Source of the DNA: Alphaproteobacteria bacterium | Lineage (GTDB): Bacteria > Pseudomonadota > Alphaproteobacteria > CBDDJK01 | Length of the DNA: 64,000 nt | NCBI GenBank assembly: GCA_045106055.1 | Contig: JBGCED010000025.1 | Span: forward strand, 1,835-65,834 | Direction: 5' to 3' | Part shown: positions 709-49,943 of the stretch, piece after piece | How positions within the stretch are numbered: the stretch's first letter is position 1 | Layout of the letters: each line of letters opens with the position of its first letter | Made by a program: the position numbers and the translations under genes | Notes under the pieces: model-generated | The model's input: the letters and a program-made list of their open reading frames with translations, nothing else | Databases searched by the model: none | What the model was told of the DNA's origin: nothing

Positions 709-781
709 TTAGACTTCAATCCTTTTGACTCTTTGTGTTTACGCTCATCGTGCGCGATGATGCGCAGTCGCGCTTGTTAAT

Positions 782-806
782 TATCAAAAGGATTCAATCC
801 TTTTGA
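782..806. promoter_or_regulatory. perfect hairpin (10-bp stem atcaaaagga/tccttttgat, loop ttcaa) at the comEC stop; a partial direct copy (caatccttttga) lies at about 719-733
   Basis: Read directly from the sequence. It is an AT-rich stem and is not followed by a clear T-run on the minus strand, so it could be a weak terminator or an RNA element between comEC and hpt. Confidence 0.3.
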
Positions 807-2992
807 TAATATTGCCAAGGATGCGGTGTTTCCGCTGCTTTTGCGGTTTCTATGCTAAATCCTTTACCTGTTTTATAAATATGATGCCAGCCCTTTTCCT
901 GTAAATCAAGCGCCGTTACTAATTTTTCATGCGAACATGGCTTTTTATCAAAAATATAGGGCGCAAAAACCATATCGGAATTTTGACATAAGGCTTTGAT
1001 CATCATCGGGCTGGGTTTGGGATTAAGCTTTGCTTTTACAATCGCGATATGGGCATCATATATATGATAATCGCATGTCATGTCGCTGCATTTAAGCCCT
1101 GTCATGGGCTGTTGCCAATTCCCTTTGATCGGCAATCCAAGCCGGCTTGACCAGATGCGCTGCGTGAATTTAGCGCGCCTTGGATGGTCAATATAAATGC
1201 CATCCGCTTGCACAAGCCCTGTGATTCGTGCATTATTTGCGATCATCATTACAGGTTTTGATGGCAGATATAATAATCCAAGAGCCAAGCATATCAGGGT
1301 AAGCCCCGCAAAAACATATCGAAAGAAATGCGTAAAAATAAAACCCAGCGCAGCACAACAGGCAAATAATAGCAGCCAAATTGCAGATGGCGGAGAAACC
1401 ATAATGCCCGCCAAAGGCAAGGATGATGAAAGGCTTGCAACGCTTAATAATTGGGTAATCCCATAGCCAGCCAGCATCAAAAAAGGATAATCAAGCCCAA
1501 GCGGCATCAACATTAACGAAATCATTAATAAGGGCATGATGAAAAGCCCCACCAGCGGAATTGCAATCAGATTGGCAATGATTGCAACCCAGCTAAATTG
1601 CCCAAAATGATAGGCAACAAACGGGGCGGTTGCCATGCTTGCGACCAAGGATGTTAGCATGATCAAGCCAAAATAGCGGATGATTTTCATCAAAATATGC
1701 GGCAAGCCCTGTCTTTGTCGTTGCTGGTAATAATCTGGATTATCATTAAGTTGCCGCGCCAAACGGCCTCGTCGCCATTCAAACACCCCAGAAAGCGCAA
1801 TCACGGCTGCAAAAGAGAGCTGAAAGCTGATTGATACCAAATGCCCAGGATTAATCATTAAAATTACCATTGCCGCAATCGCCAATGGCCGCAAAGACAA
1901 GGCATAACGATCCAATGAAATCGCCAGCATAATTAACCCCGTCATAATAAAGGCGCGCTGGGTGGGCGGGGTTGCACCAGCCAGCAGCAAATAAATGAAT
2001 AGGCAGGGAATCGCCGTCAAAGCCGCGATCTTCTTGGAATTATAAAATAAGGCAGGGCGTTGCATCAAGGCAAGTAACCAGCGCATCATGCCAAAGCCAA
2101 TCATCGCAACCAGCCCTAGATGCAGCCCTGAAATTGCCAGCAAATGCGATAATCCCGATGCTTGCATGGCTGAAATAATTTCCCTGCTTAAGCCCGCGCG
2201 ATCCCCAACGCTTAACGCCGCTGCAACTGCGGCTGAATCCTTGGAAACAGGCGCAACTATATCACGAATGCGAACCGATATGTCTTCGCGAACGCCATTA
2301 ACCCAGCCCATGATCGCGGGATCAGCCATGCTTGGTTCATGGGGTGCGGCTGCATGAATTTTACGGATAAATCCCGTTGCGCTGATCTGATGCAAATAGG
2401 CATAGCGGCGAAAATCATAGCCTTGGGGAAAGGGCGGGGGCGCGGGCGGGAATAATTTTATATCAACAAGCATGATTTGATTGGTTGCAAGCAATGCCTT
2501 GCCGCGATGAATAACGCGCACCATAATGGGTTCATGCGATCCATTCGCCAAAGCCGATTCAGGCAAAATGCTTGGCTGAATGCGCAGCCACAGGCGCTTG
2601 CGCGATTCGGATTGATGTTCAATCCGCTCTATGCGTGTTTCCACCTGTTTTAAATCAACAATTTGGGTGATGAAATTGGTGCGCCCGTCAAGATGCCACG
2701 CTGTATAGCCAACCCCGATGGCAACCAGCCCCAGAAAATAGCATCCTAATTTAAAGGGAATATTGCGGGCGATCACCCCCAATAGCAGCAAGCCTAAGCC
2801 GATCCATAAAGGCAGCCCTATCGTGATCGGAGGATAGATAAAATAAACCCCAACCCCCAGCCCAAAACCAAAGGGAATAAGCAGCGCAACCCTGGATTGC
2901 TGGGCAAGCGCATTTTGCTTAAACCGATCAACAATATTGGGAAAGGACTTTAAATTAAGCCTTATGCTGGATTGGTGTGTCCCATCTGGCAT
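794..2992 (-). CDS. comEC: ComEC/Rec2-family competence membrane protein (no obvious C-terminal metallo-beta-lactamase HxHxDH motif)
   Basis: A 732-aa polytopic membrane protein with the ComEC-type core (…LSHLLAISGLHLGLV…). The C-terminal roughly 150 aa are hydrophilic and lack MBL motifs. Confidence 0.75.
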   Translation of the reverse strand: MPDGTHQSSIRLNLKSFPNIVDRFKQNALAQQSRVALLIPFGFGLGVGVYFIYPPITIGLPLWIGLGLLLLGVIARNIPFKLGCYFLGLVAIGVGYTAWHLDGRTNFITQIVDLKQVETRIERIEHQSESRKRLWLRIQPSILPESALANGSHEPIMVRVIHRGKALLATNQIMLVDIKLFPPAPPPFPQGYDFRRYAYLHQISATGFIRKIHAAAPHEPSMADPAIMGWVNGVREDISVRIRDIVAPVSKDSAAVAAALSVGDRAGLSREIISAMQASGLSHLLAISGLHLGLVAMIGFGMMRWLLALMQRPALFYNSKKIAALTAIPCLFIYLLLAGATPPTQRAFIMTGLIMLAISLDRYALSLRPLAIAAMVILMINPGHLVSISFQLSFAAVIALSGVFEWRRGRLARQLNDNPDYYQQRQRQGLPHILMKIIRYFGLIMLTSLVASMATAPFVAYHFGQFSWVAIIANLIAIPLVGLFIMPLLMISLMLMPLGLDYPFLMLAGYGITQLLSVASLSSSLPLAGIMVSPPSAIWLLLFACCAALGFIFTHFFRYVFAGLTLICLALGLLYLPSKPVMMIANNARITGLVQADGIYIDHPRRAKFTQRIWSSRLGLPIKGNWQQPMTGLKCSDMTCDYHIYDAHIAIVKAKLNPKPSPMMIKALCQNSDMVFAPYIFDKKPCSHEKLVTALDLQEKGWHHIYKTGKGFSIETAKAAETPHPWQYYQKD

Positions 2993-6102: not shown

Positions 6103-7059
6103 TTAAATTTTATCATTTTCAGATTGTTCATTCACAATATGCAAGACACGCTGCGGAAAGGGAATGCTTAACCCCGCAGCCTCAATCGCATATTTCACAT
6201 CGCGGTTAAGCCTGAAACCAATTTTCCACTGATCCGCGCTTTTTACCCAGCATCGAAGGCGAACATCAATGCCTGATGCCCCCAAGCTGATCACCAAATA
6301 TTGGGGTTCGGGGTCTTTTAAAATTTCAGCATCACCCGCTGCAAGTGCGCGCAAAACGCCCAGCGCAGTATCAATATCATCCTCATAAGCGATGGAGACA
6401 TCAATATCAATGCGCGCAATTGGGTGGGTGGAATAATTGACAATGGTCACATTCCATAAATTGCTGTTGGGAACCGCCATATATTGCCCTTGAATGGACC
6501 GCATTTCCGTGTTGAATAAGCCAATTTGCTTGACGGTGCCATTGATGCCGCCCGCTTCGATATAATCATCCACCCGAAAGGGGCGCAGCAATAACAGCAT
6601 CAAGCCCGCAGCGATATTTTGCAATGTCCCTTGAAGCGCAAGCCCGATTGCAAGCCCCGCTGCCCCCAAAAGCGCAATGATGCTGGCGGTTTGCACCCCA
6701 ATTTGCGCCAGCACAATAACCAGCGTAAATACCCACACCAAATAACGCACAAAAAGCGGGATAAAATTGCGAATGGTTTGATCAATATAGCCAAATTTTG
6801 CTAGGATTTTAGACAAATAGGATGAAACGCTGCGCGCAATCCAATAGCCGATTAATAAAACCAACAAGGCGCGGATAAGCGCAATGCCATATTCAATGAT
6901 GATCGGCAAAATATCCTTTAGCAGCACCATAATTTGCTGATAATATTCATTGTTGAAAAAATCTTCAAACAAATGTTGTTCTCCCGGGCGTTGTTTTCTC
7001 GGGCGTTGTTCGCCCAAGCGTTTTTCGCCATTGATAAACGAATAATGCAAAAATGCCAA
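6103..7059 (-). CDS. small-conductance mechanosensitive channel (MscS family); the true start is possibly the internal MVLLKD Met near 6930
   Basis: MscS TM3 and beta-domain-like sequence. The N-terminal 30 codons overlap SURF1 and carry a GEQRPRKQRPGEQ repeat encoded by a cgggcgttgtt DNA repeat. Confidence 0.7.
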   Translation of the reverse strand: MAFLHYSFINGEKRLGEQRPRKQRPGEQHLFEDFFNNEYYQQIMVLLKDILPIIIEYGIALIRALLVLLIGYWIARSVSSYLSKILAKFGYIDQTIRNFIPLFVRYLVWVFTLVIVLAQIGVQTASIIALLGAAGLAIGLALQGTLQNIAAGLMLLLLRPFRVDDYIEAGGINGTVKQIGLFNTEMRSIQGQYMAVPNSNLWNVTIVNYSTHPIARIDIDVSIAYEDDIDTALGVLRALAAGDAEILKDPEPQYLVISLGASGIDVRLRCWVKSADQWKIGFRLNRDVKYAIEAAGLSIPFPQRVLHIVNEQSENDKI

Positions 7060-7810: not shown

Positions 7811-8416
7811 ATGTGTTTAAGCAAAAGCATGGCTGGGGTCAAGATTGATCGCAAAATAAATCCAAATTTGAGCATATCACCAATGAATTTTTCATTTAAA
7901 GCAAAACCAGCATCATCAACAGGCATCTTCACCTTACCAGATGGGCGGGAATTTCCTGCAATTTGCGGCAAAAACGGGCTTTGCCCGCCTGAACAAAAGC
8001 GCGAGGGGGATTGGATGACCCCAATCGGTGCTTATAAAATATTAAGCCTATTTTACCGCCATGATCGCATTGCAAACTTACCCGCATTGCCGCAATTTCC
8101 GCTTGAAATAACCAAGATCACTCAAATTATGGGCTGGTGCGATGATCCCGCCAGCCAATTCTATAACCGCTTGCTGCCCCTGCCAAGCGTGGATACACAT
8201 GAAATATTGATGCGCGATGATTCGCTTTATGATCTGCTATTGGTGCTGGATTATAATTATCATCAGCCGATTGCGGGGCGCGGCAGCGCGATTTTTATCC
8301 ATCTTTGGGAACAGGGCAAGACCAGCACCAAGGGCTGCATTGCCCTAAAGCGCGATCATTTATTATCCATGCTTCCTTTTATAAATAAGGATAGTTGCAG
8401 GTTAAATATTTCTTAA
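7811..8416 (+). CDS. L,D-transpeptidase (YkuD) catalytic-domain protein
   Basis: C-terminal …GSAIFIHLW…TKGCIAL with the catalytic Cys context of L,D-transpeptidases. Confidence 0.6.
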   Translation: MCLSKSMAGVKIDRKINPNLSISPMNFSFKAKPASSTGIFTLPDGREFPAICGKNGLCPPEQKREGDWMTPIGAYKILSLFYRHDRIANLPALPQFPLEITKITQIMGWCDDPASQFYNRLLPLPSVDTHEILMRDDSLYDLLLVLDYNYHQPIAGRGSAIFIHLWEQGKTSTKGCIALKRDHLLSMLPFINKDSCRLNIS

Positions 8417-8417
8417 A

Positions 8418-8560
8418 TTACGCTCACACGCCGCGAGAGCTTGATTACGCGCTCACACGCCGCGCAGGCTTTCGTCGCACTGGCGACGGCATGCGGTCTC
8501 ATGCTTGATTACGCGCTCACATGCTTGATTACGCGCTCACATTCTTGATTACGCGCTTTT
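8418..8560. repeat. REP-like intergenic repeat block: cttgattacgcgctcaca units at 8440, 8504, 8526 and 8544 (the last three tandem, 22-bp period), plus the hairpin cgtcgc-actg-gcgacg at 8473-8488
   Basis: Seen directly in the sequence. The core ttacgcgctcacacgcc is the reverse complement of ggcgtgtgagcgcgtaa, which recurs at 34.9-35.2 kb. Confidence 0.8.
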
Positions 8561-11159
8561 AAATATTTCTAAGCAGGGTTAGCGGGGATTTGCCAAGCAG
8601 ACGAAACCCAGCAGCAAGCCCGATTGGCAATATAAGCACCAATGCTAAAATTAAAATCCCCAGCATGGACATAAAATCAAACTGATACGGGGTTTGCATG
8701 ATCGCGCTTACCACATAAAAGCTGGTTGCAATCCCTGCAATCGCTGCCAAAATGGAAGCAAGCAGTGCAATAAAACTATATTCACCAAGCCAGCCCAGCA
8801 TTTGCTGCCAGCGCGTGATCCCCAAGGTTTTAAAGATGATTGAATCATGTAAACGCATTGATTGTTCTGACATTAGCGCCCCGATTAACACAATCAACCC
8901 TGCAAGCAATGAAACCGCAGCGATGGCTTTAACCGCGAGTGCCATTTGCGTTAAAATAAGCGTTATATTATCCACCACATCGCGCACCCGAATGACCGAA
9001 ATATTATTAAATTCATCGGTAAGAGCGCGTTCAATCGCCGCTTCATCTTCGGCAGGGGCGTTGATGCTAGACAGCACGCTTTGCGGGGCGTTACTTAACA
9101 TGCCTGGCGAAAATACCATTAAAAAATTAAGATTCATGCTTGCCCAATCAATATAACGCAAATTTGCAATGGTCGCATCAAATTTGCGCCCAAATAGATT
9201 AATGCCAATCTGATCGCCAACATTAAGCCCAAAGGCGGCTGCGGCTTCTGCGTCAAAGCTTACCAGCGGATCGCCATCATAATCAGCATCCCACCATTCG
9301 CCCTTTGTAATATGTCCCTCGCCAGCCAGCATCGGGGTTGCCGACCATGTAATGCCGCGATCACCGCGCATTACCCACTGAAAATCTGCGGGTGGTTCAA
9401 TTTTATCTTCTGGCACATTGTTCAAATGGGTAATGCTGGCGCGCATAAGCGGCGTTGCATAATGGCTGATCTCTGTTTGATTTTCTGCATTATAATCACC
9501 GATAATCGCTTCAAAGCGCGCTTGCTGGCTGGGCTGTAAATCAAGCACAAACAGGCTTGGGCGGTCTTCGGTCGTGACATTCACCAGCTGCTGATCCAAA
9601 TTGCTTTGTAAATCATTTACCGCAACCAGCATGGTAAGCCCCAGCCCCAGCGATAGGGCAATGCTGATCGCGGGCGCATTTGGGCGGGATAATCCTGCAA
9701 TCGCAAGGCGTAAGGGAATGGATTTTGGATGCGCAACATAAGTCGTTAGCAGTTTGGATATTCCCCATCCAATTAGGGCAAAACCTGCAATCAAGCCCGC
9801 AAGCCCAAAAATAAAATAGAAAAATAACCGCTTATCAGGGGTGATCAGCCAGCACATGCCAATAAAAGCAGCAAGCAATGCTGCCATCACCCATAATAAT
9901 TTTAAAGGGGCGCGCCCCAATTGCATTGCACCGCCAAGCCCGCCTGCGCTTCTAAACAAGCCAGCAACAGGAATGGTCGCAGCTTGACCAAGGCTCCAAA
10001 TGATGAAAATTAAAGTCACCAGCAAGCCAAGCATTGCCGCAACCAATAGCGGTAAAGGATAAATCCCAATATTGGCGGTTAATGGCACATAATCTTGCAA
10101 TAAAGGCGCAAGCAGCCACAGCGATCCTGCGCCCAGCATAAGCCCAATCACAATGCCAATCGCTGCCATAAATAAGGCTTCAAACAGAAAAATCGTAAAG
10201 ATCAAGGCTTGCGACGCACCAAGCGCTTTTAAGCTTGCAATGGATGAAGCCTTGCGGGTTAAAAAGGCGCGCACCGCATTTGCAGCCCCAACCCCGCCAA
10301 TCACCAAAGTCGCCAGCGACACCAAATTTAAAAAGCTGCCAATGCGATCAAAAAAGCGATCCAGCCCTGGTGCGGCGCGATCCAAGCCGCGCACCCGAAA
10401 GCCTGCATCCGCAAATTCGGTTTCAATGGCGGTTTTAAAATCTGCGAATATTGTGCCTTCTTTTAAAATCAATCTTGTATAATAGCGCGCAACGCTGCCA
10501 GGCTGGATTAAATTGGTGGCTGCCAATGCCGCCGCAGAAATGGTGACCTCGGGCCCAAAATCAAGCGCATTGCTGCTTTTATCAGGCAAGCTGGTGGTGA
10601 TCCCCGCAAGGTAAAAATCAGCGTCCCCCAAGCTTAACGCATCGCCAATTTCAATCTCCAACAGATCAAGAATTCTGGAATCCGCCAATAAGGGAAATGG
10701 GCGATCAGGCGCAATTACTTGATGCAATTCATCAAACGCAATCATGCTATCCGCGCTTAACACCACGCTGCCATAAAGCGGGTAAGCATCATCAACCGCA
10801 TTAATTTCAATGATATTGCGTTGATCATTTTCAGCATAAGCCATTGCGCGAAGCGTAATAACCGAAGAAATTTCAGCAGCATTTTGCTTGATAAATGCCA
10901 TCTGTTCAAGGCTGGGTGCGCGCTGGGACAGGCGCAATTCTGCGTCCCCGCCAAGCAAGGTTCTTGCATCCCGTTCAATCGTTGATTCCAAGGCAGCGCG
11001 CAAGCTGCCAACCGCGCTGATCGCGGCAACGCCAAGCGCAAGCGCAATGATAAACAAGACAAAGCCATTTGACCCGCCGCGCATATCGCGAATGCTTAAT
11101 TTAAAGGCAAGCCTTAAAAAATCAATAAGCCCCATATTGCCGCCCATATTACTGCTCAT
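8559..11159 (-). CDS. FtsX-family (DUF214, YbbP-like) ABC transporter permease with two FtsX domains; no cognate ATPase adjacent
   Basis: An 866-aa protein with two blocks of four TM helices separated by large periplasmic domains. Its start overlaps the def stop by 4 nt. Confidence 0.75.
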   Translation of the reverse strand: MSSNMGGNMGLIDFLRLAFKLSIRDMRGGSNGFVLFIIALALGVAAISAVGSLRAALESTIERDARTLLGGDAELRLSQRAPSLEQMAFIKQNAAEISSVITLRAMAYAENDQRNIIEINAVDDAYPLYGSVVLSADSMIAFDELHQVIAPDRPFPLLADSRILDLLEIEIGDALSLGDADFYLAGITTSLPDKSSNALDFGPEVTISAAALAATNLIQPGSVARYYTRLILKEGTIFADFKTAIETEFADAGFRVRGLDRAAPGLDRFFDRIGSFLNLVSLATLVIGGVGAANAVRAFLTRKASSIASLKALGASQALIFTIFLFEALFMAAIGIVIGLMLGAGSLWLLAPLLQDYVPLTANIGIYPLPLLVAAMLGLLVTLIFIIWSLGQAATIPVAGLFRSAGGLGGAMQLGRAPLKLLWVMAALLAAFIGMCWLITPDKRLFFYFIFGLAGLIAGFALIGWGISKLLTTYVAHPKSIPLRLAIAGLSRPNAPAISIALSLGLGLTMLVAVNDLQSNLDQQLVNVTTEDRPSLFVLDLQPSQQARFEAIIGDYNAENQTEISHYATPLMRASITHLNNVPEDKIEPPADFQWVMRGDRGITWSATPMLAGEGHITKGEWWDADYDGDPLVSFDAEAAAAFGLNVGDQIGINLFGRKFDATIANLRYIDWASMNLNFLMVFSPGMLSNAPQSVLSSINAPAEDEAAIERALTDEFNNISVIRVRDVVDNITLILTQMALAVKAIAAVSLLAGLIVLIGALMSEQSMRLHDSIIFKTLGITRWQQMLGWLGEYSFIALLASILAAIAGIATSFYVVSAIMQTPYQFDFMSMLGILILALVLILPIGLAAGFRLLGKSPLTLLRNI

Positions 11160-16207: not shown

Positions 16208-17389
16208 ATGGCGCGCGCATTTATCCTTGTGATTGATTCTTTTGGAATTGGCGAAGCCCCCGATGCGGCTTCCTTTGGGGATGTGGGCGCGGATACTTTT
16301 GGGCATATTGCTGAAAAATATCCTTTGAAAATACCCAATTTGCTTGGGCTTGGGCTTGGGGAGGCCTATCGGATCAGCACGGGGCATTATCCTGCTGGCA
16401 TGAAGGATATGCCCCCGATCAATGCAGCTTACGGTGCAGCCGCCGAACAAAGTCGCGGCAAAGACACGCCAAGCGGACATTGGGAAATGGCGGGGCTGCC
16501 TGTTGATTTTGATTGGGGCTATTTTCCAGATGAAAATCCTTGTTTTCCCAAGGAATTAACCGATGCTTTAATTGATCAAGGCAATTTGGCGGGCATTTTG
16601 GGAAATCGTCATGCTTCTGGCACGCAAATTATCCAAGAATGGGGCGAAACCCATATTAAAACAGCAAAGCCAATTTGCTATAGTTCTGCGGATTCTGTAT
16701 TTCAAATTGCGGCGCATGAAGATGTTTTTGGGCTTCAGCGCCTATATGATCTATGCGCGCTGGCAGAAACTTTATGTAAACCCTATAAAATCGGGCGGGT
16801 CATTGCGCGACCTTTTCTTGGCAGCCATGCGGATGATTTTAAACGCACCGCCAACCGCAAGGATTTAACCGTTCCCCCTCATGGGGAAACCTTGCTGGAT
16901 CGCCTTTGCGCTGCGGGCGGCAGCGTCATTTCAGTGGGAAAAATTGCCGATATTTTTGCAGGTCGCGGCATTTCCAAACGCTTAAAAGCCCCAACCACCG
17001 AAGGCTTGATGGATCACGCGATCAATCAATTAAAAACCGCCCCTGATGAAAGCTTGACCTTTGTCAATTTTGTTGATTTTGACCAGCTTTATGGGCATCG
17101 CCGCGATGTAGAAGGCTATGCGCGGGAGCTTGAAAAATTGGATGCGATTTTGCCTGATTTTATCCATCAAATGCGCCCCGATGATTTGGCGGTGATCAGC
17201 GCAGATCATGGCTGCGATCCCACATGGCATGGCACAAATCATACGCGCGAAAATGTGCCTTTATTATTCTTTGGTGCGGGGGTAATTCCGCAAAATTTGG
17301 GGCTGCGTTCAAGCTTTGCCGATTTGGGGCAAACGCTTGCTGCGCATTTGGGCATCCCCCCGCTTCAATATGGCATCAAATGTTTTTAA
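16208..17389 (+). CDS. deoB: phosphopentomutase
   Basis: N-terminal VIDSFGIGEAPDA…GHIAE metal-binding signature; 393 aa. Confidence 0.9.
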   Translation: MARAFILVIDSFGIGEAPDAASFGDVGADTFGHIAEKYPLKIPNLLGLGLGEAYRISTGHYPAGMKDMPPINAAYGAAAEQSRGKDTPSGHWEMAGLPVDFDWGYFPDENPCFPKELTDALIDQGNLAGILGNRHASGTQIIQEWGETHIKTAKPICYSSADSVFQIAAHEDVFGLQRLYDLCALAETLCKPYKIGRVIARPFLGSHADDFKRTANRKDLTVPPHGETLLDRLCAAGGSVISVGKIADIFAGRGISKRLKAPTTEGLMDHAINQLKTAPDESLTFVNFVDFDQLYGHRRDVEGYARELEKLDAILPDFIHQMRPDDLAVISADHGCDPTWHGTNHTRENVPLLFFGAGVIPQNLGLRSSFADLGQTLAAHLGIPPLQYGIKCF

Positions 17390-18633
17390 AAACAGCGTTT
17401 GAACCAGTTTAAAAGCTGGTAATGATAGCCTGTTCTGCCGTCAATATTTTCGCGTTTGGGCTTGACCGCAGCAGATAGAAATTTGGGTTGAAGCGCATGG
17501 AAATTATAATGCTGAACCAGCCCCATAACGCACGCGCCTTGTGGTAATTTAAAGCCTTCAAGCACGCCCGAAACCCCTTGCGGTTTTCCGTTTCTGACCT
17601 GCGCTTTAAAATGTTCGGTTGCAACCATGTGCAGCCCTTCTAGGTTTGCGCCGCCGCCCGTTAAAACAAAATGCCATAAATGCAAATGATCATAGCCTGC
17701 ATTGTTTAATTTTTTTTCAATTTCCTCAAGCAGCGCTTTAACCCGCCCATTAATCACCTTATTGAGCTGGGACGCGGATTGTTGGTGCTGATGATTGCTG
17801 GGATCATCGCCTGCAAGATAATAGGTAATAAAATTATTGGCATCTTTTGGTGCCATCAGCGCATTTCCATGACGCGACATTAGCCGATAAGATTCTTTTG
17901 AATTTATACCAAGCGTGCGCGCAATATCATTTTGAACCGTATTGATGCCAAAGGGCAGGCTGGCTGCAAATTGCAGCGCATGCTGGCGAATGATGCTAAT
18001 GCCAATGGTTTGATCGCCAAAATCAAGAACAATGGCACCGATTTCACTTTCCGCAGGGGTAAGCACCGATTGCGCCGCAGCATAGGGCGCAAAAACCTTG
18101 CGATGCGCTTTTATTTTGCAATATGCAAGCGCGGCATCAATATTTTTAACGGCGGTTGCATCCACGCTTAGGCAGTGCATTTTAATGCTAAGGCTGTTGG
18201 AGTGAAGATTAACGGGGTTTTTGCTTTCAAGCTTGCCATCAATGTAAAACCCAATCGGGTTTAAATGTAAAATTTGGCGATCTGGCTTTAGGGCAATATT
18301 TGCTTTGGCTTCGCTGATCAGGCGGCGTACATCGTCTTGGGTGATTTGTGTGGACGGAATTTTGATCTGGTGCTGGGTTTGATGGCTGATCGCTTTTGAT
18401 CGATTGACCGATATGATTAAATTATCAATATGTTGTTGTGCTGCTGATTCTGCGCGATGAATCGCGGTTGAGATTGCGTCTGCGGCGGCATCAAAGGCGG
18501 TGATCTGCCCCGATACAATGCCTGATGATGGTACGATTGCCCCGCCAAGCTGCGTAAAGCCTTGTTCTGTTTTTTGGGCAATCAATACCCTAATGTAAGA
18601 TGATCCGATGTCTAAGCCTGCAACGATTGTCAT
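17386..18633 (-). CDS. ftsA: cell division protein FtsA
   Basis: Actin-fold motifs (VAGLDIGSS, …LTGGGANL…), 415 aa, immediately downstream of ftsQ. Confidence 0.9.
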   Translation of the reverse strand: MTIVAGLDIGSSYIRVLIAQKTEQGFTQLGGAIVPSSGIVSGQITAFDAAADAISTAIHRAESAAQQHIDNLIISVNRSKAISHQTQHQIKIPSTQITQDDVRRLISEAKANIALKPDRQILHLNPIGFYIDGKLESKNPVNLHSNSLSIKMHCLSVDATAVKNIDAALAYCKIKAHRKVFAPYAAAQSVLTPAESEIGAIVLDFGDQTIGISIIRQHALQFAASLPFGINTVQNDIARTLGINSKESYRLMSRHGNALMAPKDANNFITYYLAGDDPSNHQHQQSASQLNKVINGRVKALLEEIEKKLNNAGYDHLHLWHFVLTGGGANLEGLHMVATEHFKAQVRNGKPQGVSGVLEGFKLPQGACVMGLVQHYNFHALQPKFLSAAVKPKRENIDGRTGYHYQLLNWFKRCF

Positions 18634-18655
18634 TTATAACATCCTATTCATAAGC

Positions 18656-19618
18656 TTACCCGCAATCTGGGGCGCAAATTAATGTTGGGTTAAGTGCGGG
18701 GCTTGGCGGGTCGCTTTTTATGTTTGATTTTGCCTTTTTAGGGGCGGTTTTTTGTGTCGCCACAGGCGCAATCGGGCGCATGATCATACGATCTTCCAGC
18801 CGTAAGTCAATTTGATCAAAATGGGTTAAATCAAGGCGGCTATTTTCGATTAATTCAATGAATTGGGTTAATTTTTTGCCTGGCCTATCCGCAGGCAATT
18901 TTAAGCGCAATCCTTGGTTGAAATGCAGCATCCAATAGCGCTCGCGCATCAAGGTTGCCGCTTGAAATTGATCCCGCAAATAGGGGCTTAGCTGGTCAAG
19001 CAACGGATAAACCTCGTCTGCGCGCACATTCGCACTTTGACCAATAACCAAAGGCAAATCTGAGAAGCCTTGGCTTGGCTGCCTGATAAAGGCAACCCCA
19101 TCTGGGTCAACTAGAAAAAATTGGCGTTGATGTTGCCAGATGGCATAGGGCTGACGCTCTTGGATGGTGATGTGTAATTTATTCGGCCATTGCCGCTTGA
19201 TGCTTGCCTGTTTAATCCAATCAATTTGCAGCAATTCCTGTTTTGTATGTTCAAGGTCAATCCAGAATAAGGGGGTGCCATTGGTAAGGGTAATCGCTTC
19301 CATAATTTTATGTTTCTGCGTGTGCTTGCGCCCATCAAGTGCCAGCTGTTCCAAGCCAAATCCTGTTTTCATGGCATGGGTTTCAATTATTTGATTTAGC
19401 ATGGCAGGGGTCAAACCTGACAAATTGGCAATCGGCCAGAATCCAAACCATAATATAAAACCCAAAATACCAAGCCCGCCAACCCCGCTTAATTTTTTGT
19501 GTTTTAACAGAAAATTCCAAGATTGAACCAGCAATATTTTTGTGTCGCTTGGCGGCTTTTTCTTTTGTTTCGTTCGAGATATCCGCGCGCTTTTTTTTAT
19601 TCTTCTTTTTGTCGTCAT
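18656..19618 (-). CDS. ftsQ: cell division protein FtsQ
   Basis: Basic cytoplasmic N-terminus, a single TM, then POTRA/FtsQ periplasmic domains; its position between ddl and ftsA supports the call. Confidence 0.75.
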   Translation of the reverse strand: MTTKRRIKKSARISRTKQKKKPPSDTKILLVQSWNFLLKHKKLSGVGGLGILGFILWFGFWPIANLSGLTPAMLNQIIETHAMKTGFGLEQLALDGRKHTQKHKIMEAITLTNGTPLFWIDLEHTKQELLQIDWIKQASIKRQWPNKLHITIQERQPYAIWQHQRQFFLVDPDGVAFIRQPSQGFSDLPLVIGQSANVRADEVYPLLDQLSPYLRDQFQAATLMRERYWMLHFNQGLRLKLPADRPGKKLTQFIELIENSRLDLTHFDQIDLRLEDRMIMRPIAPVATQKTAPKKAKSNIKSDPPSPALNPTLICAPDCG

Positions 19619-20586
19619 TTCAAGGCATCCTTGATGATCCAGTCAATCAGCTGATCAAAGCTGATGCCTTTGCTGGCGGCTTGTTCAGGGGCAAGGCTAA
19701 GCGCGGTCATGCCTGGCTGTGTGTTGATTTCCAAAATAACAAGCCGCGCAGGCGCGTCTTTAATATTTGTGTCATCATAGCGAAAATCAGTGCGGGTAAG
19801 CCCCTTGCAATCAAGCGCAAAATGCGCGGTTTCTGCCATCACCATGCAGCGTTCATAAAGCGCATCATCAATCTTTGCAGGGCAAATATGCTGGGTTGCC
19901 CCTTGGCTATATTTTGCATCAAAATCATAAAATCCTTGATTGGGGATAAGTTCGGTAACCGCAAGCGCCTTTCCGCCCAAGACCGCAACCGTAAATTCAC
20001 GCCCCGCAATATATTCTTCAACCAAAAATTCTTGATTGCCATATTGCTCTAGGTCAGGCATATCATCTTGGGTTTTAACAACCCATACCCCAACCGATGA
20101 TCCTTCATTAAGCGCTTTAATCACAAAAGGGAAGGGCAGCGGTGGGTGGCTGTTAATTCGCGCCGCCGTTTCAATGCGCCCCGCCGCAATCGGCAGCCCA
20201 AGGGATTGCAGGATTTGCCGCGTCACATGCTTATTCATTGCCATTGCGGATGATAATAGCCCAGAATGGGTGATGGGAAGCCCAAGCAATCCGCATAGCG
20301 CTTGCACATGCCCATCTTCGCCAAACGGACCATGCAGCCCATTAAATACCAGCTGGCATTGCCCATCAAAGGCATTTTTAAGCGCATTGCAAAAATCGGC
20401 AGCATCACGCGGCGGGTCAATCACAATGACTTGATGCCCAAGCGCAAGCAAGGCTTGGTGAATGGCAGCCCCTGTTTCCAAAGAAACGGATCGCTCCGCA
20501 GACCATCCGCCTTGCAGCAAGATAATTTTTAAAGCAAGCATCTTATCCATGGCATGCCCCCTTTGGCGCGATTTGATGGCGGCCAA
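19615..20586 (-). CDS. ddl: D-alanine--D-alanine ligase
   Basis: ATP-grasp fold (…LHGPFGEDG…, …EEYIAGREFTVAVL…), 4-nt overlap with ftsQ. Confidence 0.88.
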   Translation of the reverse strand: MAAIKSRQRGHAMDKMLALKIILLQGGWSAERSVSLETGAAIHQALLALGHQVIVIDPPRDAADFCNALKNAFDGQCQLVFNGLHGPFGEDGHVQALCGLLGLPITHSGLLSSAMAMNKHVTRQILQSLGLPIAAGRIETAARINSHPPLPFPFVIKALNEGSSVGVWVVKTQDDMPDLEQYGNQEFLVEEYIAGREFTVAVLGGKALAVTELIPNQGFYDFDAKYSQGATQHICPAKIDDALYERCMVMAETAHFALDCKGLTRTDFRYDDTNIKDAPARLVILEINTQPGMTALSLAPEQAASKGISFDQLIDWIIKDALK

Positions 20587-21484
20587 TGCGGATCAATTCC
20601 CATTCAAGGATAATTCCAGTGCATTGCCTTACTTGATCAATGGCATATTCGCCAAGCATTTCCAAATCTCTTGCGCTGGCATTTCCCAGATTAATTAAGA
20701 AATTACAATGCAAGGGCGATATTTGTGCATCATTTCGGCGATAACCGCGCAGCCCCGCTGCATCAATCAGTCGCCATGCCTTATGCCCTGCGGGGTTTTT
20801 AAAGGTTGAACCGCCTGTTCTTGCCTTGGTTGGTTGGGTTGCTTTGCGCTGTCTTGCAATTTCATCCATCTTGTGTTTGATCATGTCGCTGCGCGCCGAT
20901 AAATCGCCAATCAGGGTCATGCTGGTCACAATGAAACCAGATGGCAGCCCGCCATTGCGATACCCCATGGGCAGGTCCGAACATAAATAGCGTGCTTTTG
21001 ATCCATCTGGCAAAACCCCTTCAATATCATGGGCGATGTCCCGAAATTCACTGCCATAAGCCCCCGCATTCATCGCGGCAATCCCGCCCATTGCCCCTGG
21101 AATGCCGCTTAGAAATTCCAAGCCGCCGACACAATGCTGCTGGGCAAAACGGGCAAGCTGTATTGCAAGCGTCCCCGCGCCAACTTTTATTTTATCATCT
21201 GTTATGATCATGTCATTAAAGCCTGCACCCAGCTTGATTACAGTTCCTGCGATGCCGCCATCGCGGATTAAGATGTTTGATGCCGCCCCCAGCAAGGTAA
21301 CAGGCATTGCGGCTGGCTTGCTATGCAAGAATTCAGCCAATTCCAAAGCATTTGCAGGGCGAAACAGAAAATCAGCATTGCCGCCCACCCGCAGCCAGCT
21401 ATATTTGGCAAGCGGAATATCAGCCTCCATCCGCCCCAAAGGCGGGGAATAGGGAATGTTGATGGTCAAAGATGATTGCGTCAT
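20543..21484 (-). CDS. murB: UDP-N-acetylenolpyruvoylglucosamine reductase
   Basis: FAD-binding MurB fold (…GGNADFLF…, …GGLEFLSGIPG…). Confidence 0.85.
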   Translation of the reverse strand: MTQSSLTINIPYSPPLGRMEADIPLAKYSWLRVGGNADFLFRPANALELAEFLHSKPAAMPVTLLGAASNILIRDGGIAGTVIKLGAGFNDMIITDDKIKVGAGTLAIQLARFAQQHCVGGLEFLSGIPGAMGGIAAMNAGAYGSEFRDIAHDIEGVLPDGSKARYLCSDLPMGYRNGGLPSGFIVTSMTLIGDLSARSDMIKHKMDEIARQRKATQPTKARTGGSTFKNPAGHKAWRLIDAAGLRGYRRNDAQISPLHCNFLINLGNASARDLEMLGEYAIDQVRQCTGIILEWELIRIGRHQIAPKGACHG

Positions 21485-21488
21485 TTGA

Positions 21489-22940
21489 TTATTCTTTTAA
21501 GCGATCTGGAAAATCATTTGCCCATTTGGTAATGGATCCTGCACCCAAAAAGATCACCATATCCTGATCATTAAGGGCGGGCCTGATTAAGGAGGGAAGC
21601 GTTTGTTCATCTTCAAAAACATGCACGGAAACATGCCCATTCTCACGCAGTTTTTGAGCAAATATCGTGCTGCTAACCCCTTGAATTGGGGATTCGCCCG
21701 CAGCATAAACAGGGGCAATATAAACATGATCCGCATCATTCAAGCAATTCATAAATTCAGGCATAAGATCATTAAGTCTGCTATAGCGATGGGGCTGGAT
21801 GATGGCATGGATTTTTCCCGTGGTTAGGCTGCGCGCCGTATCAAGGACAGCTGCAATTTCGGTTGGATGATGCCCATAATCATCAATGATTTTAACGCCA
21901 TCAACCTCGCCAACTAAGGTGAAGCGGCGTTTTACGCCTTTGAAATGATGAAGCCCTGCTTTGATTTGGGCAAGCGGAATGCCGATCCCATAGCCCACCG
22001 CTATTGTTGACAGCGCATTTAACACATTATGTTTTCCTGCGATTGGCATTGTAATCCCAGACAAGGTAAGATCAAGCCCAATCATCTGATCCTTAATTTG
22101 AACATCAAAATGCTGGATTTGATCTTTGATCGATAGGTTAATGCCGCGAATCATTGAATCGGAATCAAGCCCATAAGACAGGATGCGGCGATCCTTAATC
22201 TCATTAAAAATGGCTTTAACCGTGGGATCATCGCAGCATAACACGCCAAACCCATAAAAGGGAATTTGTTCAATAAATTGCTTAAAGCCAGCAATTAAAT
22301 TTTCAAAACTTCCATAATAATCCAAATGTTCAGGATCAATATTGGTAATAACCGCAATGTCGGATGGCAATTTTAAAAAGCTGCCATCTGATTCATCGGC
22401 TTCTGCAACCAGCCAATCGCCGCTGCCAAGCAGTGCGTTGCTGCCGATGGCGTTGATGATCCCGCCATTAATGATGGTGGGTTCAAAACCCGCGCTGACC
22501 AATATTTGTGCCATCATCGATGTTGTGGTGGTTTTGCCATGGCTGCCCGCAATCGCGATGGAGCGTTTGAAACGCATTAATTCTGCTAGCATTTCAGCGC
22601 GCCTTACCACGGGAATATGGTGCTTGCGCGCTTCCACCAATTCGGCATTATCATGGCGAATCGCGCTGGAAGTTACAACGACCGCCGCCCCAAGGATATT
22701 TTGTGCGTGATGCCCATCAAAGATGCGGACGCCAAGCTGGCGCAAGCGCTGTGTATTTGGATTGCTTGCCTGATCGGAGCCTGATATTTCATAACCTAAA
22801 TTATGCAATAATTCAGCAATGCCTGACATGCCAATCCCGCCAATGCCGATAAAATGGATGCGCCCGAAATGAAGCGGGATTTTATGTGCGTGATGGATTG
22901 ATTTGTTGGGCATGGATATTTCCTTAGATGCTATGATCAT
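21489..22940 (-). CDS. murC: UDP-N-acetylmuramate--L-alanine ligase
   Basis: HFIGIGGIGMSGIAELL N-terminus and the Mur ligase GSHGKTTTT P-loop. Confidence 0.9.
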   Translation of the reverse strand: MIIASKEISMPNKSIHHAHKIPLHFGRIHFIGIGGIGMSGIAELLHNLGYEISGSDQASNPNTQRLRQLGVRIFDGHHAQNILGAAVVVTSSAIRHDNAELVEARKHHIPVVRRAEMLAELMRFKRSIAIAGSHGKTTTTSMMAQILVSAGFEPTIINGGIINAIGSNALLGSGDWLVAEADESDGSFLKLPSDIAVITNIDPEHLDYYGSFENLIAGFKQFIEQIPFYGFGVLCCDDPTVKAIFNEIKDRRILSYGLDSDSMIRGINLSIKDQIQHFDVQIKDQMIGLDLTLSGITMPIAGKHNVLNALSTIAVGYGIGIPLAQIKAGLHHFKGVKRRFTLVGEVDGVKIIDDYGHHPTEIAAVLDTARSLTTGKIHAIIQPHRYSRLNDLMPEFMNCLNDADHVYIAPVYAAGESPIQGVSSTIFAQKLRENGHVSVHVFEDEQTLPSLIRPALNDQDMVIFLGAGSITKWANDFPDRLKE

Positions 22941-24069
22941 TCATATTATTACCAGAAGATAAAATGACGCTTTTTGCCATTGCTGCTAGTTTTAGCGCGG
23001 CATCAGGCATTGCATGCTTGCGCACCGCCTTTGCGGCAAGCGGTAAAATTTCTTCTGAATCAATGAAATTTTGAAGCCTTGCTGCCAACCATTCAGGGGT
23101 GAAATCTTGCTGGGGGATCATCCAGCCCCCTGCAATCTCGCTTATTCTAACGGCATTTGCGGTTTGATGATCATCGGTTGCAAAAGGATAGGGAACCAGG
23201 ATTGCAGGCTTTCCTGCAAGCGTTAATTCGGCAATGGTTGATGCCCCCGCGCGGGCAATTACCAAATGCGCCTGTTCCAGCCGTTTTGGCATATCATCAA
23301 AAAAGCCTTTCACTTCAAAATCAAGATTTAAAGCTTGATAGGCAGCAGATAGGGTTTCAATATCTTCCAGCCTTGCTTGCTGCACCAGCCTTAACATTGA
23401 ACGGCTGTCATCGGTTAGCAAAGTCAAGGCATCGGGCAGAATTTTTGTATAGATCGAAGCCCCCTGGCTGCCGCCCGTGATTAAAATGGAAAGCTTTTGC
23501 CCTTTTTGGGGCAGCTGATAGGATGAATGGGTTAAAGCGGTAATGGCTTGGCGGACGGGATTTCCAACCCATTGTGATTTTATTCTTTGGGCGGCGCTTA
23601 ATTTATCGGTTCTGGTAAAGCTTAGCGCCAGTGCCTGCGCCCCGCTTGCAACCAAGCGATTTGCCCGCCCAAGCACGGCATTTTGTTCATGGATAATATA
23701 AGGGACGCGCCATAATTTTGCCGCCAAGATCGTGGGGATGCTGGAATAACCGCCAAAGCCGATAACCAAATTAGGGCGATCGCGTGCCATTGCAAATACC
23801 GCTTGCATGCTGCCAAGCCCCAGTAAAATGGCGGCCTTTATTTTTGTAAACAGCCCCTTTCCCGTGATTCCCGCACTTAAAAAACGCCTTGTTTGCAAGG
23901 ATGCAAGCAAACCATCATTTGGAATGGGGCGATGATCCGTATAAAGCTTCATAACCATTCCCATCTTTTGTAAATGGGCGCAAACTGCTTCTGCGGGATA
24001 TAAATGCCTGCCCGTTCCGCCCGTTGCAAGAATGATTAAACAGGGTTCTTTGGTTGTTTTTCTGGGCAT
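22924..24069 (-). CDS. murG: undecaprenyldiphospho-muramoylpentapeptide beta-N-acetylglucosaminyltransferase
   Basis: GT28 fold (ILATGGTGRHLYPA…, …ITGGSQGA…). Confidence 0.88.
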   Translation of the reverse strand: MPRKTTKEPCLIILATGGTGRHLYPAEAVCAHLQKMGMVMKLYTDHRPIPNDGLLASLQTRRFLSAGITGKGLFTKIKAAILLGLGSMQAVFAMARDRPNLVIGFGGYSSIPTILAAKLWRVPYIIHEQNAVLGRANRLVASGAQALALSFTRTDKLSAAQRIKSQWVGNPVRQAITALTHSSYQLPQKGQKLSILITGGSQGASIYTKILPDALTLLTDDSRSMLRLVQQARLEDIETLSAAYQALNLDFEVKGFFDDMPKRLEQAHLVIARAGASTIAELTLAGKPAILVPYPFATDDHQTANAVRISEIAGGWMIPQQDFTPEWLAARLQNFIDSEEILPLAAKAVRKHAMPDAALKLAAMAKSVILSSGNNMNDHSI

Positions 24070-24072
24070 GGG

Positions 24073-25185
24073 CTATTGCTCTTTCCTGGTTAACGCCAAA
24101 ATCATGCCAAGGGTCACCCCTGTTGCAAGCACTGAACTGCCGCCAAATGATAAAAAAGGAAAAGTCATGCCCTTTGGGGGGATTATGCTAAGCGCGGTTG
24201 CCATATTAATAACAGATTGCAGGCAAAATTGGGTAATTAAGCCCATGCTTGCCAGCTGAGCAAATATGTCATTCAATTTAAGGGTCTTATAAAAGGCACG
24301 AAAGATCAGCCCCGCCAAAGCGATCATCAAGATCGTGCAGGCAACCAGCCCAAACTCTTCGCCAATCACGGCAAAAATATAATCATTATGCCCGTCTGGG
24401 ATGCTGTTTTTATACGCCCCCTCGCCAGGGCCTGTTCCAAATAGCCCGCCAGAGGCAAAAGCGCGCTGGGCTGTATAGCTTTGGGTGACAACACTGGAAT
24501 GGTCAACAAACAGAAATCCATCAATGCGATTTTTAAAATAACTAACATTGTGATAGGCTCTAAACACAGCGAAAAAGCCCAATAGCGCAAATAAAATCAT
24601 GGATTTCAGCCCCCAGCCCCCAAGAAATAAAATGACAACAAAGATGCTGGTTAAAATAAAAGTTTGCCCAAAATCAGGCTGGGTAACAACCGTGATTGCA
24701 ACCAGCCCATAAATTATAAAAGCAATTGTAAAACTTGGAAGCTCTTTTTCCTTGAATCTTGAACTGATTACCCATGCAATGATAATGGCAAAGCTTGGTT
24801 TTAAAATTTCAGTTGGCTGAAAGGTAAGCCCAAATAATCCAAGCCACCGCTGTGCGCCTTTGACTTCCACCCCAATCAGATGGGTTAATACAACCATGGT
24901 AAAGGCAAGTCCAAATAACAAAATGCCAAATCGCCTGATTTGATCTTTTGATAGAAAAGACAAAATAATCATAATGGTAATCGCCCCAATGAGCATTGTA
25001 ACTTGCTTAATAAGCATAAGAAGCGGGCTTTTATCATTCGAAAAATCCAAGGTCGCACTTATTGTAAAGGCAAGCCAAATGCCCGTCAGCGCCAATAATA
25101 AACAGCCGACCAAAGCAACACGATCCACCGTCAACCACCATTTGCCAAGAATCGAATTATCATTTCTGGAGATGATGTTAAACAT
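24073..25185 (-). CDS. ftsW: peptidoglycan glycosyltransferase FtsW (SEDS family)
   Basis: A 10-TM SEDS protein sitting between murD and murG. Confidence 0.85.
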   Translation of the reverse strand: MFNIISRNDNSILGKWWLTVDRVALVGCLLLALTGIWLAFTISATLDFSNDKSPLLMLIKQVTMLIGAITIMIILSFLSKDQIRRFGILLFGLAFTMVVLTHLIGVEVKGAQRWLGLFGLTFQPTEILKPSFAIIIAWVISSRFKEKELPSFTIAFIIYGLVAITVVTQPDFGQTFILTSIFVVILFLGGWGLKSMILFALLGFFAVFRAYHNVSYFKNRIDGFLFVDHSSVVTQSYTAQRAFASGGLFGTGPGEGAYKNSIPDGHNDYIFAVIGEEFGLVACTILMIALAGLIFRAFYKTLKLNDIFAQLASMGLITQFCLQSVINMATALSIIPPKGMTFPFLSFGGSSVLATGVTLGMILALTRKEQ

Positions 25186-34468: not shown

Positions 34469-34555
34469 TTTCTGTTTAACCTAATTTAAGCATTCTGCCT
34501 GTTTTTTTATGCTAAATCATTAAACAATTATATGCGTGTAAAGTCAATGATATTT

Positions 34556-34590
34556 ATGGGATTTTATGGTTTTTTAAGGGATTTTATGGG
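34556..34590 (+). promoter_or_regulatory. candidate MraZ operator: four (T/A)(T/A)GG(G/T) direct repeats with an exact 10-bp period (TGGG 34557, TGGT 34567, AGGG 34577, TGGG 34587)
   Basis: Seen directly in the sequence, about 90-120 bp upstream of the mraZ start. E. coli MraZ binds three TGGGN direct repeats at 10-bp spacing in the mra promoter. Confidence 0.45.
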
Positions 34591-34683: not shown

Positions 34684-34857
34684 ATGAAAACACCAGATGC
34701 CAATCCAGATTCACCCGACTTAAAAACGGATGATGCAAGACCAAAAGCAAAGGGCGCAAAGCCGAAGAAATCACCAGAGAAACAGGCTTTGCTTGCTGCG
34801 CGATTGCGCGAAAATTTAACAAAGCGAAAATCACAAAGCCGCGCCCGCGCAAAATGA
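34684..34857 (+). CDS. small basic hypothetical protein (57 aa: MKTPDANPDSPDLKTDDARPKAKGAKPKKSPEKQALLAARLRENLTKRKSQSRARAK); under 60 aa and therefore absent from the ORF track
   Basis: ATG at 34684 and TGA at 34855-34857 were translated by hand. It is lysine/arginine-rich, with no recognised family. Confidence 0.3.
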   Translation: MKTPDANPDSPDLKTDDARPKAKGAKPKKSPEKQALLAARLRENLTKRKSQSRARAK

Positions 34858-34904
34858 AAGTAAACATATCATAAAATCATATTTTGATTCTATTTGGTTC
34901 AGTG

Positions 34905-35205
34905 CATAAAAAACGCACGGCGTTTAAGCCCGCGACTGCGGGTCGCCAATGGTTTGGCGTAAGCCCGCACGGCGTGTGAGTGCGTAAAAAAATAGCGTGT
35001 TTATTTCAAGCGCACAAGTGTGCGCCATCGCTAGTGCGATGTAAGCCTGCATGGCGTGTGAATGCGTAAAAAAGTTTTAAGCCCGCGACTGCGGGTCGCC
35101 AATAGTTTGGCGTAAGCCTGCACGGCATGTGAGTGCGTAAAAAAACGCACGGCGTGTGAGTGCGTAAAAAAACGCACGGCGTGTGAGTGCATAAAGAGTG
35201 CGCTA
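34905..35205. repeat. REP-like repeat block: a roughly 68-bp unit (ttaagcccgcgactgcgggtcgccaatggtttggcgtaagcccgcacggcgtgtgagtgcgtaaaaaa) at 34925-34992 and 35077-35145; a 27-bp unit acgcacggcgtgtgagtgcgtaaaaaa repeated in tandem at 35146-35199; and the perfect palindrome gcgcacaagtgtgcgc at 35010-35025
   Basis: Seen directly in the sequence. It shares the core ggcgtgtgag(c/t)gcgtaa with the 8.4-kb block in the opposite orientation, and both carry a GC hairpin with a 4-nt actg/gact loop. Confidence 0.85.
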
Positions 35206-43018: not shown

Positions 43019-43338
43019 ATCTCATGCTAAGCTTGATCTCTATGCTTATTCACACAAGTATGCTTATTCATACAAGATAGCAGGGCGATATTATCTGCTG
43101 CGATCCTTTATTCTTTCAAAGTCTAAATATACTTCATTAGGGCTAAGAAAATGATCTTATCCTTTTGCTTGTCAGCCCTTAAGTTTTTGCTTGATTACAG
43201 GGCTGTGTTTATGTATAGCAACGGTTAATTCACAGGAAGATGCCATAAATCTTTTTTTCTGGTGTTGCATTTGCAATTCTATCATTCGTGCATCTTCCAA
43301 GGGCATAACCAGAAAATAAATTTAGAAAGTATAAAATC

Positions 43339-48754: not shown

Positions 48755-48756
48755 AG

Positions 48757-49113: not shown

Positions 49114-49289
49114 TCATTTCCCCATCTTTATGCTGTTTATCGTGGATTGTTTTTTATCATTATAGAACATAATTCAAAAAGTTAAACCCGTATCAGCAAA
49201 AAAACCCCAGCTTCGTTGATAAGAAAATTGAGCTTAGAAAATAAGCATTGAAAATTTTATCATTAAACCGCCTGTAAGGAGCAAAGCCC

Positions 49290-49916: not shown

Positions 49917-49943
49917 TTTTTTCAAACATCATATCATTCTTGA

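Follow-up and report, generated by a model that had tools for sequence, protein, structure and literature searches.

Repeat Loci in the Window

The analyzed stretch of DNA, here called the window, covers 64 kb with a G+C content of 45.8% and belongs to a compact genome, in that only about 15 spacers in the 64 kb are longer than 70 nt. Three of these hold copies of one repeat family (Table 1), and all scanned open reading frames (ORFs) of the window are either housekeeping genes or genes without known function. At locus A the repeats lie between a YkuD-like gene and an FtsX/MacB-like permease gene (8559-11147, minus strand), at locus B between the stop codon (35203) of a gene for a YejF-like double ABC ATPase (35203-36828, minus strand) and the region upstream of mraZ, and at locus C in an 85-nt spacer that extends from the stop codon (794-796) of the ComEC competence gene (794-2992, minus strand) to the start (708) of a hypoxanthine phosphoribosyltransferase gene. 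The inserts measure 64, 145, and about 300 nt and contain only short repeat-derived ORFs; a 25-codon open frame that spans locus C is probably not significant.

The core motif of the family, GGCGTGTGAGYGCGTAA, has seven matches in the 64-kb window when up to two mismatches are allowed, as compared with 0.00 expected from shuffles, and a shorter pattern adds an eighth, partial copy at 8529. The sequence-only reading had described this core as shared by the 8.4-kb and 34.9-35.2-kb blocks in opposite orientations, with both blocks adjoining gene 3′ ends, and these statements hold: the copies at locus A are all on the minus strand, those at locus B are all on the plus strand, and the blocks adjoin the minus-strand stops at 8559 and 35203. 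The term “forward” denotes the motif strand throughout, that is, plus at locus B and minus at loci A and C. The two hairpins that the same reading had paired with each other are found where it had placed them (cgtcgc-actg-gcgacg at 8473-8488 and cccgc-gact-gcggg at 34929-34942); in a common orientation, however, the one at 8.4 kb is the second hairpin (hp2) of the repeat module and the one at 34.9 kb the first (hp1), so that the two are not homologous. Its unit lengths of 22-29 bp and 68 bp have to be replaced by tandem periods of 20 nt (x2.9) and 27 nt (x2.8) and by one 29-nt pair and three 70-nt units, the latter starting at 34923, 35005, and 35076 with spacings of 82 and 71 nt. The two loci that it had named are real, but the list was incomplete, the third locus at 729-792 having been missed.

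Table 1. Features of the repeat family in the window and contigs carrying the empty locus C
Feature	Position or contig	Strand	Basis or source
Core GGCGTGTGAGYGCGTAA, locus A copies	8445, 8509	-	motif scan
Core GGCGTGTGAGYGCGTAA, locus B copies	34971, 35053, 35124, 35151, 35178	+	motif scan
Locus A array, 145 nt	8414..8558	-	motif scan, tandem and repeat searches
Module A-4, 70 nt	8440..8509	-	alignment and model R1, 89.5 bits
20-nt tandem units (CATGTGAGCGCGTAATCAAG), x2.9	8500..8557	-	Tandem Repeats Finder
Locus A direct repeat, copy 1 (TTAAATATTTCT)	8402..8413		exact 12 nt
Locus A direct repeat, copy 2 (TTAAATATTTCT)	8559..8570		exact 12 nt
Locus B array, about 300 nt	34901..35202	+	motif scan, tandem and repeat searches
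Module B-a, 70 nt	34923..34992	+	alignment and model R1, 95.9 bits
Module B-b, 70 nt	35005..35074	+	alignment and model R1, 93.7 bits
Module B-a′, 96% identical to B-a	35076..35145	+	alignment and model R1, 96.4 bits
Two 27-nt units (hp3 and TAAAAAAA)	35146..35199	+	tandem and repeat searches, model R1
Locus C insert, 64 nt	729..792	-	model R1 match and sister-strain comparison
Locus C distal direct repeat (plus strand TTCAATCCTTTTGA)	715..728		exact 14 nt
Locus C gene-proximal direct repeat, with comEC stop TGA (794-796)	793..806		exact 14 nt
Perfect palindrome, 31 nt	780..810		15 + 15 nt, 100% complementary, 1 nt between
Empty locus C	L233		run SRR29999184
Empty locus C	L242		run SRR29999185

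Architecture of the 70-nt Module

The three long units of locus B and one unit of locus A (8440-8509) can be aligned without gaps over 70 columns, and all four follow the same order, in which a linker (T)YAAG is followed by hp1 (5-6 bp, loop of 4-6 nt), hp2 (6 bp, loop NRGT), a second linker RWAAGCC, a third hairpin (hp3; 5 bp with a 9-nt loop, GGCGTGTGA), and finally TAA with an A/T-rich tail. Each module thus carries three GC-rich hairpins of 14-19 nt, of which the stems vary across the four modules while the hp3 loop and the linkers are invariant. In module B-a the hairpins are CCCGC-GACT-GCGGG, CGCCAA-TGGT-TTGGCG, and CGCAC-GGCGTGTGA-GTGCG, followed by TAAAAAAA, and module B-b has the same architecture built with other stems (GCGCAC-AAGT-GTGCGC, CATCGC-TAGT-GCGATG, and GCAT..ATGC). 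Module A-4 consists of ATCAAG, hp1 (CATG..CATG), hp2 (CGTCGC-CAGT-GCGACG), AAAGCC, hp3 (TGCGC-GGCGTGTGA-GCGCG), and TAATCAAG.

That the repeats form hairpins, as had been proposed, is borne out by folding and by the pairing of the modules themselves. On the motif strand, standard pairs occupy 98.5% of the 68 pair cells (17 base pairs in four modules), and 9 of the 17 base pairs have changed on both sides; none of 500 shuffles matched the observed pairing and covariation, and slid registers were only 18-59% paired, although the sample behind the covariation is small, with four modules of which three are independent. Pairing on the complementary strand is lower (91.2% of cells) because five helix-end G.U pairs turn into A.C, and the better pairing of the motif strand may be taken as a mild indication that one of the strands is the relevant one.

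The arrays are mosaics of such modules and of shorter pieces. Read from the permease stop codon, locus A opens with a partial unit and two 20-nt units, continues with one 70-nt module, and closes with a 29-nt terminal unit; locus B combines three 70-nt modules with a partial unit and two 27-nt units, the latter falling within a 27-nt tandem array (x2.8) at 35120-35195 reported by Tandem Repeats Finder. From their sequences, the 20-nt units of locus A and the 27-nt units of locus B read as internal-deletion or partial derivatives of the 70-nt module.

A covariance model (R1) built from the four modules and run over the window without filters recovered its own four members and the hp3-only units, and it additionally gave a match at 734-780 on the minus strand, in locus C (14.8 bits, rough E 0.007); only loci A and B are visible by simple word searches. 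The structured 70-nt module family is therefore present at three loci, and word search and model R1 together found no copy in the 64-kb window beyond these. Locus C begins with 13 nt of the comEC 3′ end in inverted form and continues with TAACAAG, hp1 (GCGC-GACT-GCGC), hp2 (TCATCG-CGCA-CGATGA), and GCGTAAACACAAAGAG; it is a degenerate copy, in which hp1, hp2, and the GAGCGTAA end are present and most of hp3 has been deleted (GCGTAAAC...). The 10-mer CGCGACTGCG is common to loci C and B, and TGAGCGTAA is common to locus C and the terminal unit of locus A. A weaker R1 match at 58833-58886 on the minus strand (10.7 bits, E about 0.3), in which GGCGTGTGA is directly followed by TAAAAAAA, lies inside an ORF and is probably due to chance, though a decayed fragment is possible.

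Insertion Footprints and Empty Sites

Exact direct repeats flank locus A (12 nt) and locus C (14 nt). At both, the gene-proximal copy takes in the stop of the minus-strand gene that lies upstream (TAA for the permease, TGA for comEC), and the inserts start 0-1 nt past that stop, a distance which suggests targeting or strong selection. At locus A the final codons (LNIS) of the YkuD-like gene lie in the distal copy, and the proximal copy combines the TAA stop with the final codons of the permease gene; at locus C the distal copy carries a Shine-Dalgarno-like AAGGA for the downstream gene. A single copy of the repeat would leave the neighboring genes tail to tail at locus A or 7 nt apart at locus C, so that the duplication of a 12-14-nt target allows both neighbors to retain their ends and at locus C also preserves the AAGGA ribosome-binding site. 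Repeats of this length are not rare as such, since about six 12-mer direct-repeat word pairs are expected per 64 kb within 400 nt and five background pairs were seen, and the argument for insertion consequently rests on the placement of the repeats at the edges of the element and on the empty site.

The empty site predicted from the duplication at locus C, with one copy of the repeat and no insert (...ATTATCAAAAGGATTGAAGTCTAAATG...), was found exactly in two Logan contigs. The flanks of one of them, L233, are 99.3-99.8% identical to the window, and its alignment falls into two parts, which share a 14-nt overlap and pass over 64 nt of the window. Locus C is thus an insertion with target duplication that is polymorphic between strains, which makes at least one copy of the family such an insertion. 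The filled allele occurs only in the contig of the metagenome-assembled genome (MAG) and in none of the three Logan assemblies. The empty allele could instead have been derived by deletion between the 14-nt repeats and not be ancestral; the 14-nt repeats themselves would nevertheless still require an origin of the insertion type. For locus A, eight hypothetical YkuD proteins ending in ...LNISKQG, as expected of an empty allele, were looked for and none is on record, and in SRR29999185 the locus is filled as seen from both sides. At locus B a clean flanking duplication is lacking; the 10-nt AGTGCATAAA present there resembles part of a unit.

No inverted repeat joins the two ends of the insert at locus A or at locus C, and the only long inverted repeat pairs an insert with its own flank. 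This is the perfect palindrome at locus C, which has the G of the comEC stop codon at its center. Native comEC sequence supplies one of its arms and the first 13 nt of the insert most of the other, and the whole palindrome is missing from the empty allele. At the junction of locus A, a native quasi-palindrome is lengthened by no more than 4 nt of the insert.

In array B, the 18 nt at 34998-35015 are 78% complementary to 35198-35215 (the last yejF codons and the stop codon), which echoes the inverted flank copy of locus C and is possibly due to chance.

The arrays at loci A and B are unstable and their content differs between samples, the differences being seen at contig ends, with no complete alternative arrays among them. 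In L111 (SRR29999183), 24 nt of another unit (…AACAAGCGCACAAG) stand against the same left flank of locus B; in the alignment of positions 1-24 of this contig with 34905-34928 of the window, the left edge of array B joins that other unit (GATAAGGCTTAACAAGCGCACAAG, forward strand), so that the content of array B differs between co-occurring strains. L110 (SRR29999185) stops exactly at the left edge of array B, and L113, from the same run, stops within the 20-nt units of locus A, its first unit being CAAGCATG as compared with CAAGAATG in the window. Since Logan contigs end at them, the arrays evidently break short-read assemblies, and they could serve as strain markers.

The repeats are a genuine dispersed family, as the sequence-only reading had it, with members in three distinct intergenic spacers of the 64 kb. 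The rival view, that the 8.4-kb and 35-kb regions merely share a local duplication with no family behind it, would agree with the simple word searches, which showed two loci only, but is extremely improbable given that a third locus was found, that the flanking duplications are independent and differ in sequence, that presence/absence polymorphism exists, and that the stems differ between modules.

Searches for Related Sequences

No transposase, RAYT (Y1/HUH), integrase, or reverse-transcriptase domain was found in the scanned ORFs of the window, a scan that left out seven presumed dcw genes (17386-25043). About 5 kb of extra flank from related Logan contigs held no further copy, and as the examined part of the genome thus amounts to about 69 kb with three loci, the term “family” rests on a small sample.

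An exact scan with the degenerate core gave single chance matches in unrelated taxa among 185,579 species genomes, and the same scan of JGI metagenome contigs and viral contigs likewise gave single matches in unrelated taxa only. With blastn, both loci searched against 229 genomic stretches yielded nothing beyond the 17-mer, and locus B searched in the “distant” mode against plasmids and phages yielded no match. Within the collections searched, in which the source genome is absent or masked, the lack of real recurrence means that the family is shared by no other organism. The closest permease relative (contig L230, 57% identity) lacks both synteny and the repeats, and the named permease relatives, at 35-40% identity, are mostly from Rhodospirillales.

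Rfam gave no match at the gathering score in the window and none on the arrays at E<=1, and ARAGORN found no tRNA; tRNA-derived and known small-RNA readings were rejected accordingly. CRISPR and attC arrays were rejected for want of unique spacers or cassettes. DNA uptake sequences were considered as well and rejected, as no Haemophilus, Actinobacillus, or Neisseria dialects were found and no 9-12-mers are over-represented outside the arrays, despite the presence of comEC.

Comparison with Known Small Repeats

The family is a new member of the known class of small bacterial interspersed repeats, being neither a REP/RAYT system nor a textbook MITE. Such repeats are known mostly from a few well-studied groups. 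In BIMEs the REPs alternate in orientation, and REP systems typically comprise tens to hundreds of copies per genome together with a cognate single-copy RAYT gene flanked by repeats. By definition, a REP is a short (about 21-65 nt) GC-rich imperfect palindrome (PMC3184786) and a REPIN is a doublet formed by two REPs in inverted orientation (PMC3337134). With the REP/BIME/REPIN-RAYT systems of enterobacteria and pseudomonads, the present family shares short, GC-rich, imperfect extragenic palindromes, conserved motifs outside the stems, and mosaic clusters with conserved linkers that lie at gene 3′ ends and between convergent genes. In a classical REP/BIME (REPIN) reading, the palindromes would be multiplied by a single-copy RAYT, that is, an IS200-like HUH tyrosine transposase, encoded elsewhere, and the variable stems combined with conserved flanking and loop motifs are indeed what structure-specific recognition would be expected to produce. 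We nevertheless consider this reading distinctly unlikely, and the signature of a REP/BIME-like family, which the sequence-only reading had seen at these loci, is not upheld: all units of a locus are arranged head-to-tail and share one orientation, inverted doublets and a GTAG-type 5′ tetranucleotide are both lacking, no RAYT was found among the scanned ORFs of the window, and loci A and C are flanked by target duplications of 12 and 14 nt, respectively, whereas single-strand transposition of the IS200/IS605 type makes none.

The proposed likeness to MITEs is borne out in part. As in Correia/Nemis, RUP, and MITEAba12, the elements are small (64-300 nt here), non-coding, and intergenic, have stable stem-loops and flanking target duplications, and show insertion polymorphism between strains. 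In contrast to MITEs, their ends lack terminal inverted repeats, the duplications, at 12 and 14 nt, are long and differ in length, the architecture is one of tandem or mosaic direct units, and no parent insertion sequence is known.

The mycobacterial MIRUs, which form VNTR loci, appear to be similar in that 40-100-nt tandem units occupy short intergenic spacers of operons, contain GC-rich internal inverted repeats, form arrays whose content may likewise vary between strains, and abut the flanking stop and start codons, as at locus C. The present tandem units are of 20, 27, and 70 nt; small overlapping ORFs are not evident, the orientation with respect to the flanking genes is not constant, and the sequences are unrelated.

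Intergenic mosaics of palindromic modules also appear to be a point of architectural likeness with the neisserial NIMEs and with RIME, the latter likewise alphaproteobacterial. RIME were reportedly described by Osteras et al. in 1995 as Rhizobium-specific intergenic mosaic elements.

The near-identical strains (~99.7%) supply a filled and an empty site with exact junctions, which include the 14-nt duplication and the 13-nt inverted flank copy. The junctions of locus C thereby constitute a concrete and testable footprint of how insertion takes place in this uncultured alphaproteobacterium, the genome of which is very compact.

Models of Spread

The reading that we favor, and hold to be likely, is that of a lineage-specific family of small, non-autonomous, and recently mobile DNA elements, with recent mobility following from the existence of the empty site in sister strains. 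Modules or parts of them have inserted into very short spacers immediately past a stop codon, duplicating 12-14 nt of the target; in this model, the insert may then grow or shrink into mosaic arrays via slipped-strand events or unequal recombination between the 20-nt and 27-nt sub-repeats. Mobility would be conferred by an activity whose gene lies in another part of the genome and which introduces staggered breaks at a distance of 12-14 nt or, alternatively, by a replication or repair template switch provoked by the hairpins, and the hairpins themselves might be kept because the moving or recognized form is single-stranded. It should be noted that the duplications differ in length, with 12 nt at locus A and 14 nt at locus C, and that unequal lengths are unusual for a single DDE transposase. 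To our knowledge, the mechanism by which small repeats lacking inverted ends move is largely obscure. The unequal duplications together with the inverted flank copy keep two further readings alive, namely template switching and target-primed copying.

In the first of these, spread would be enzyme-free: replication stalled by a hairpin would switch template to a local fold-back and then to another copy of the family before returning upstream, which would give a templated insertion, a local inverted copy, and a direct duplication. Consistent with that, the locus C insert opens with 13 nt that repeat the comEC 3′ end perfectly in inverted form, belong to the 31-nt palindrome, and are followed by family sequence and then by the 14-nt direct duplication; the duplications vary in length (12 vs 14 nt), terminal inverted repeats are lacking, and the starts of the elements are truncated or permuted. 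On the other hand, the inverted flank copy is clear at one locus only (4 nt at locus A), three independent events involving one family within 64 kb seem many for untargeted repair, and both clean insertions lie 0-1 nt from a stop codon, which points to targeting or strong selection. On balance we regard this reading as unlikely.

In the second, the family would be a SINE-like bacterial retroposon, the module being copied via a single-stranded, possibly RNA, intermediate by target-primed synthesis. The lack of terminal inverted repeats fits such copying, as do the duplications of 12 and 14 nt, which begin A-rich just past T's (TT|AGAAAT and TTA|TCAAAA), the A/T-rich 3′ tails (TAAAAAAA and TAAACACAAAGAG), the occurrence of 5′-truncated or rearranged copies, the snap-back inverted flank copy at the 5′ junction, and the slight bias of pairing toward one strand. 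We know of no bacterial small repeat that combines these features, and we rate the retroposon reading as highly improbable.

Effects on the Host and Neighboring Features

For the mobile family that we favor, effects on the host would be side effects, for example stable hairpins in 3′ untranslated regions (3′-UTRs), and such side effects are likely. The minus strand of locus B would offer several weak hairpin-U7 terminators in succession on the way from yejF to the mraZ promoter, and the comEC stop codon at locus C would be spanned by a 15-bp hairpin. The former prediction stems from hp3 (-6.8 to -7.3 kcal/mol): in the stretch from yejF to the mraZ promoter region, the minus strand of locus B shows this hairpin with a trailing U7 five times. 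Loci A and C lack U-tracts, so that the terminator-like arrangement is confined to the minus strand of locus B and is not a property of the family; a role as terminator or mRNA stabilizer is plausible for that strand of that locus only.

A rival explanation would make usefulness to the host the reason for duplication, the repeats being functional RNA elements such as 3′-UTR stabilizers, intrinsic terminators, or a small structured RNA. The compensatory changes that conserve the structure, the better pairing of one strand, the folding z-score of locus B (-4.4 to -5.3), and the hairpins with U7 after yejF would all agree with this. The reading is very unlikely all the same, as loci A and C have no U-tracts, loci A and C are oriented differently from locus B with respect to the upstream gene, no Rfam family or tRNA is matched, and the plus strand of locus A folds no better than shuffles (z = -0.39). 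Moreover, locus C is dispensable in near-identical strains (~99.7%), and a host function is therefore not required.

Several further features of the window were observed alongside the repeats. A basic ORF of 57 aa (34684-34857, plus strand), called as a gene in a public collection, converges on array B; no homologue was found among 1.84 billion representatives, which makes its reality as a gene doubtful. Adjoining array B, a sub-threshold Rfam match to STnc290 at 34851-34898 on the minus strand (28.6 bits against a gathering score of 60) is most likely due to chance. Between yejB and the ATP synthase operon lies a lone gene of the FliP family (39031-39819, minus strand; PF00813, E 2e-79), with no other flagellar or type III secretion gene in the window. 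The 351-nt spacer upstream of rpsB contains an 18-nt tandem duplication at 43041-43076 (TATGCTTATTCACACAAG x2, 94% identical) that is unrelated to the family.

Six ORFs (47795-48754, 49944-50846, 50969-51370, 51398-51907, 57808-58569, and 58710-59708) have no Pfam match at E 0.01, and a seventh, 49290-49916, has a sub-threshold match only; the regions 47795-51907 and 57808-59708 form a lineage-specific gene patch in an otherwise housekeeping window. Just past the left end of the window, L233 carries at 6359-6589, upstream of a dnaX-like gene, a sequence (..GGTCAGGTTCGGAAGAAAGCAGCC..) that by eye resembles SRP (4.5S) RNA. Finally, a 10-nt period at 34553-34590, with 3.8 copies of TTTATGGGAT (minus strand ..CCCATAAAAT..), lies just upstream of a promoter-like site (TTGACT-N17-TTTAAT) and mraZ; with its spaced TGGGA boxes it looks like a candidate MraZ operator, separate from the repeat family.
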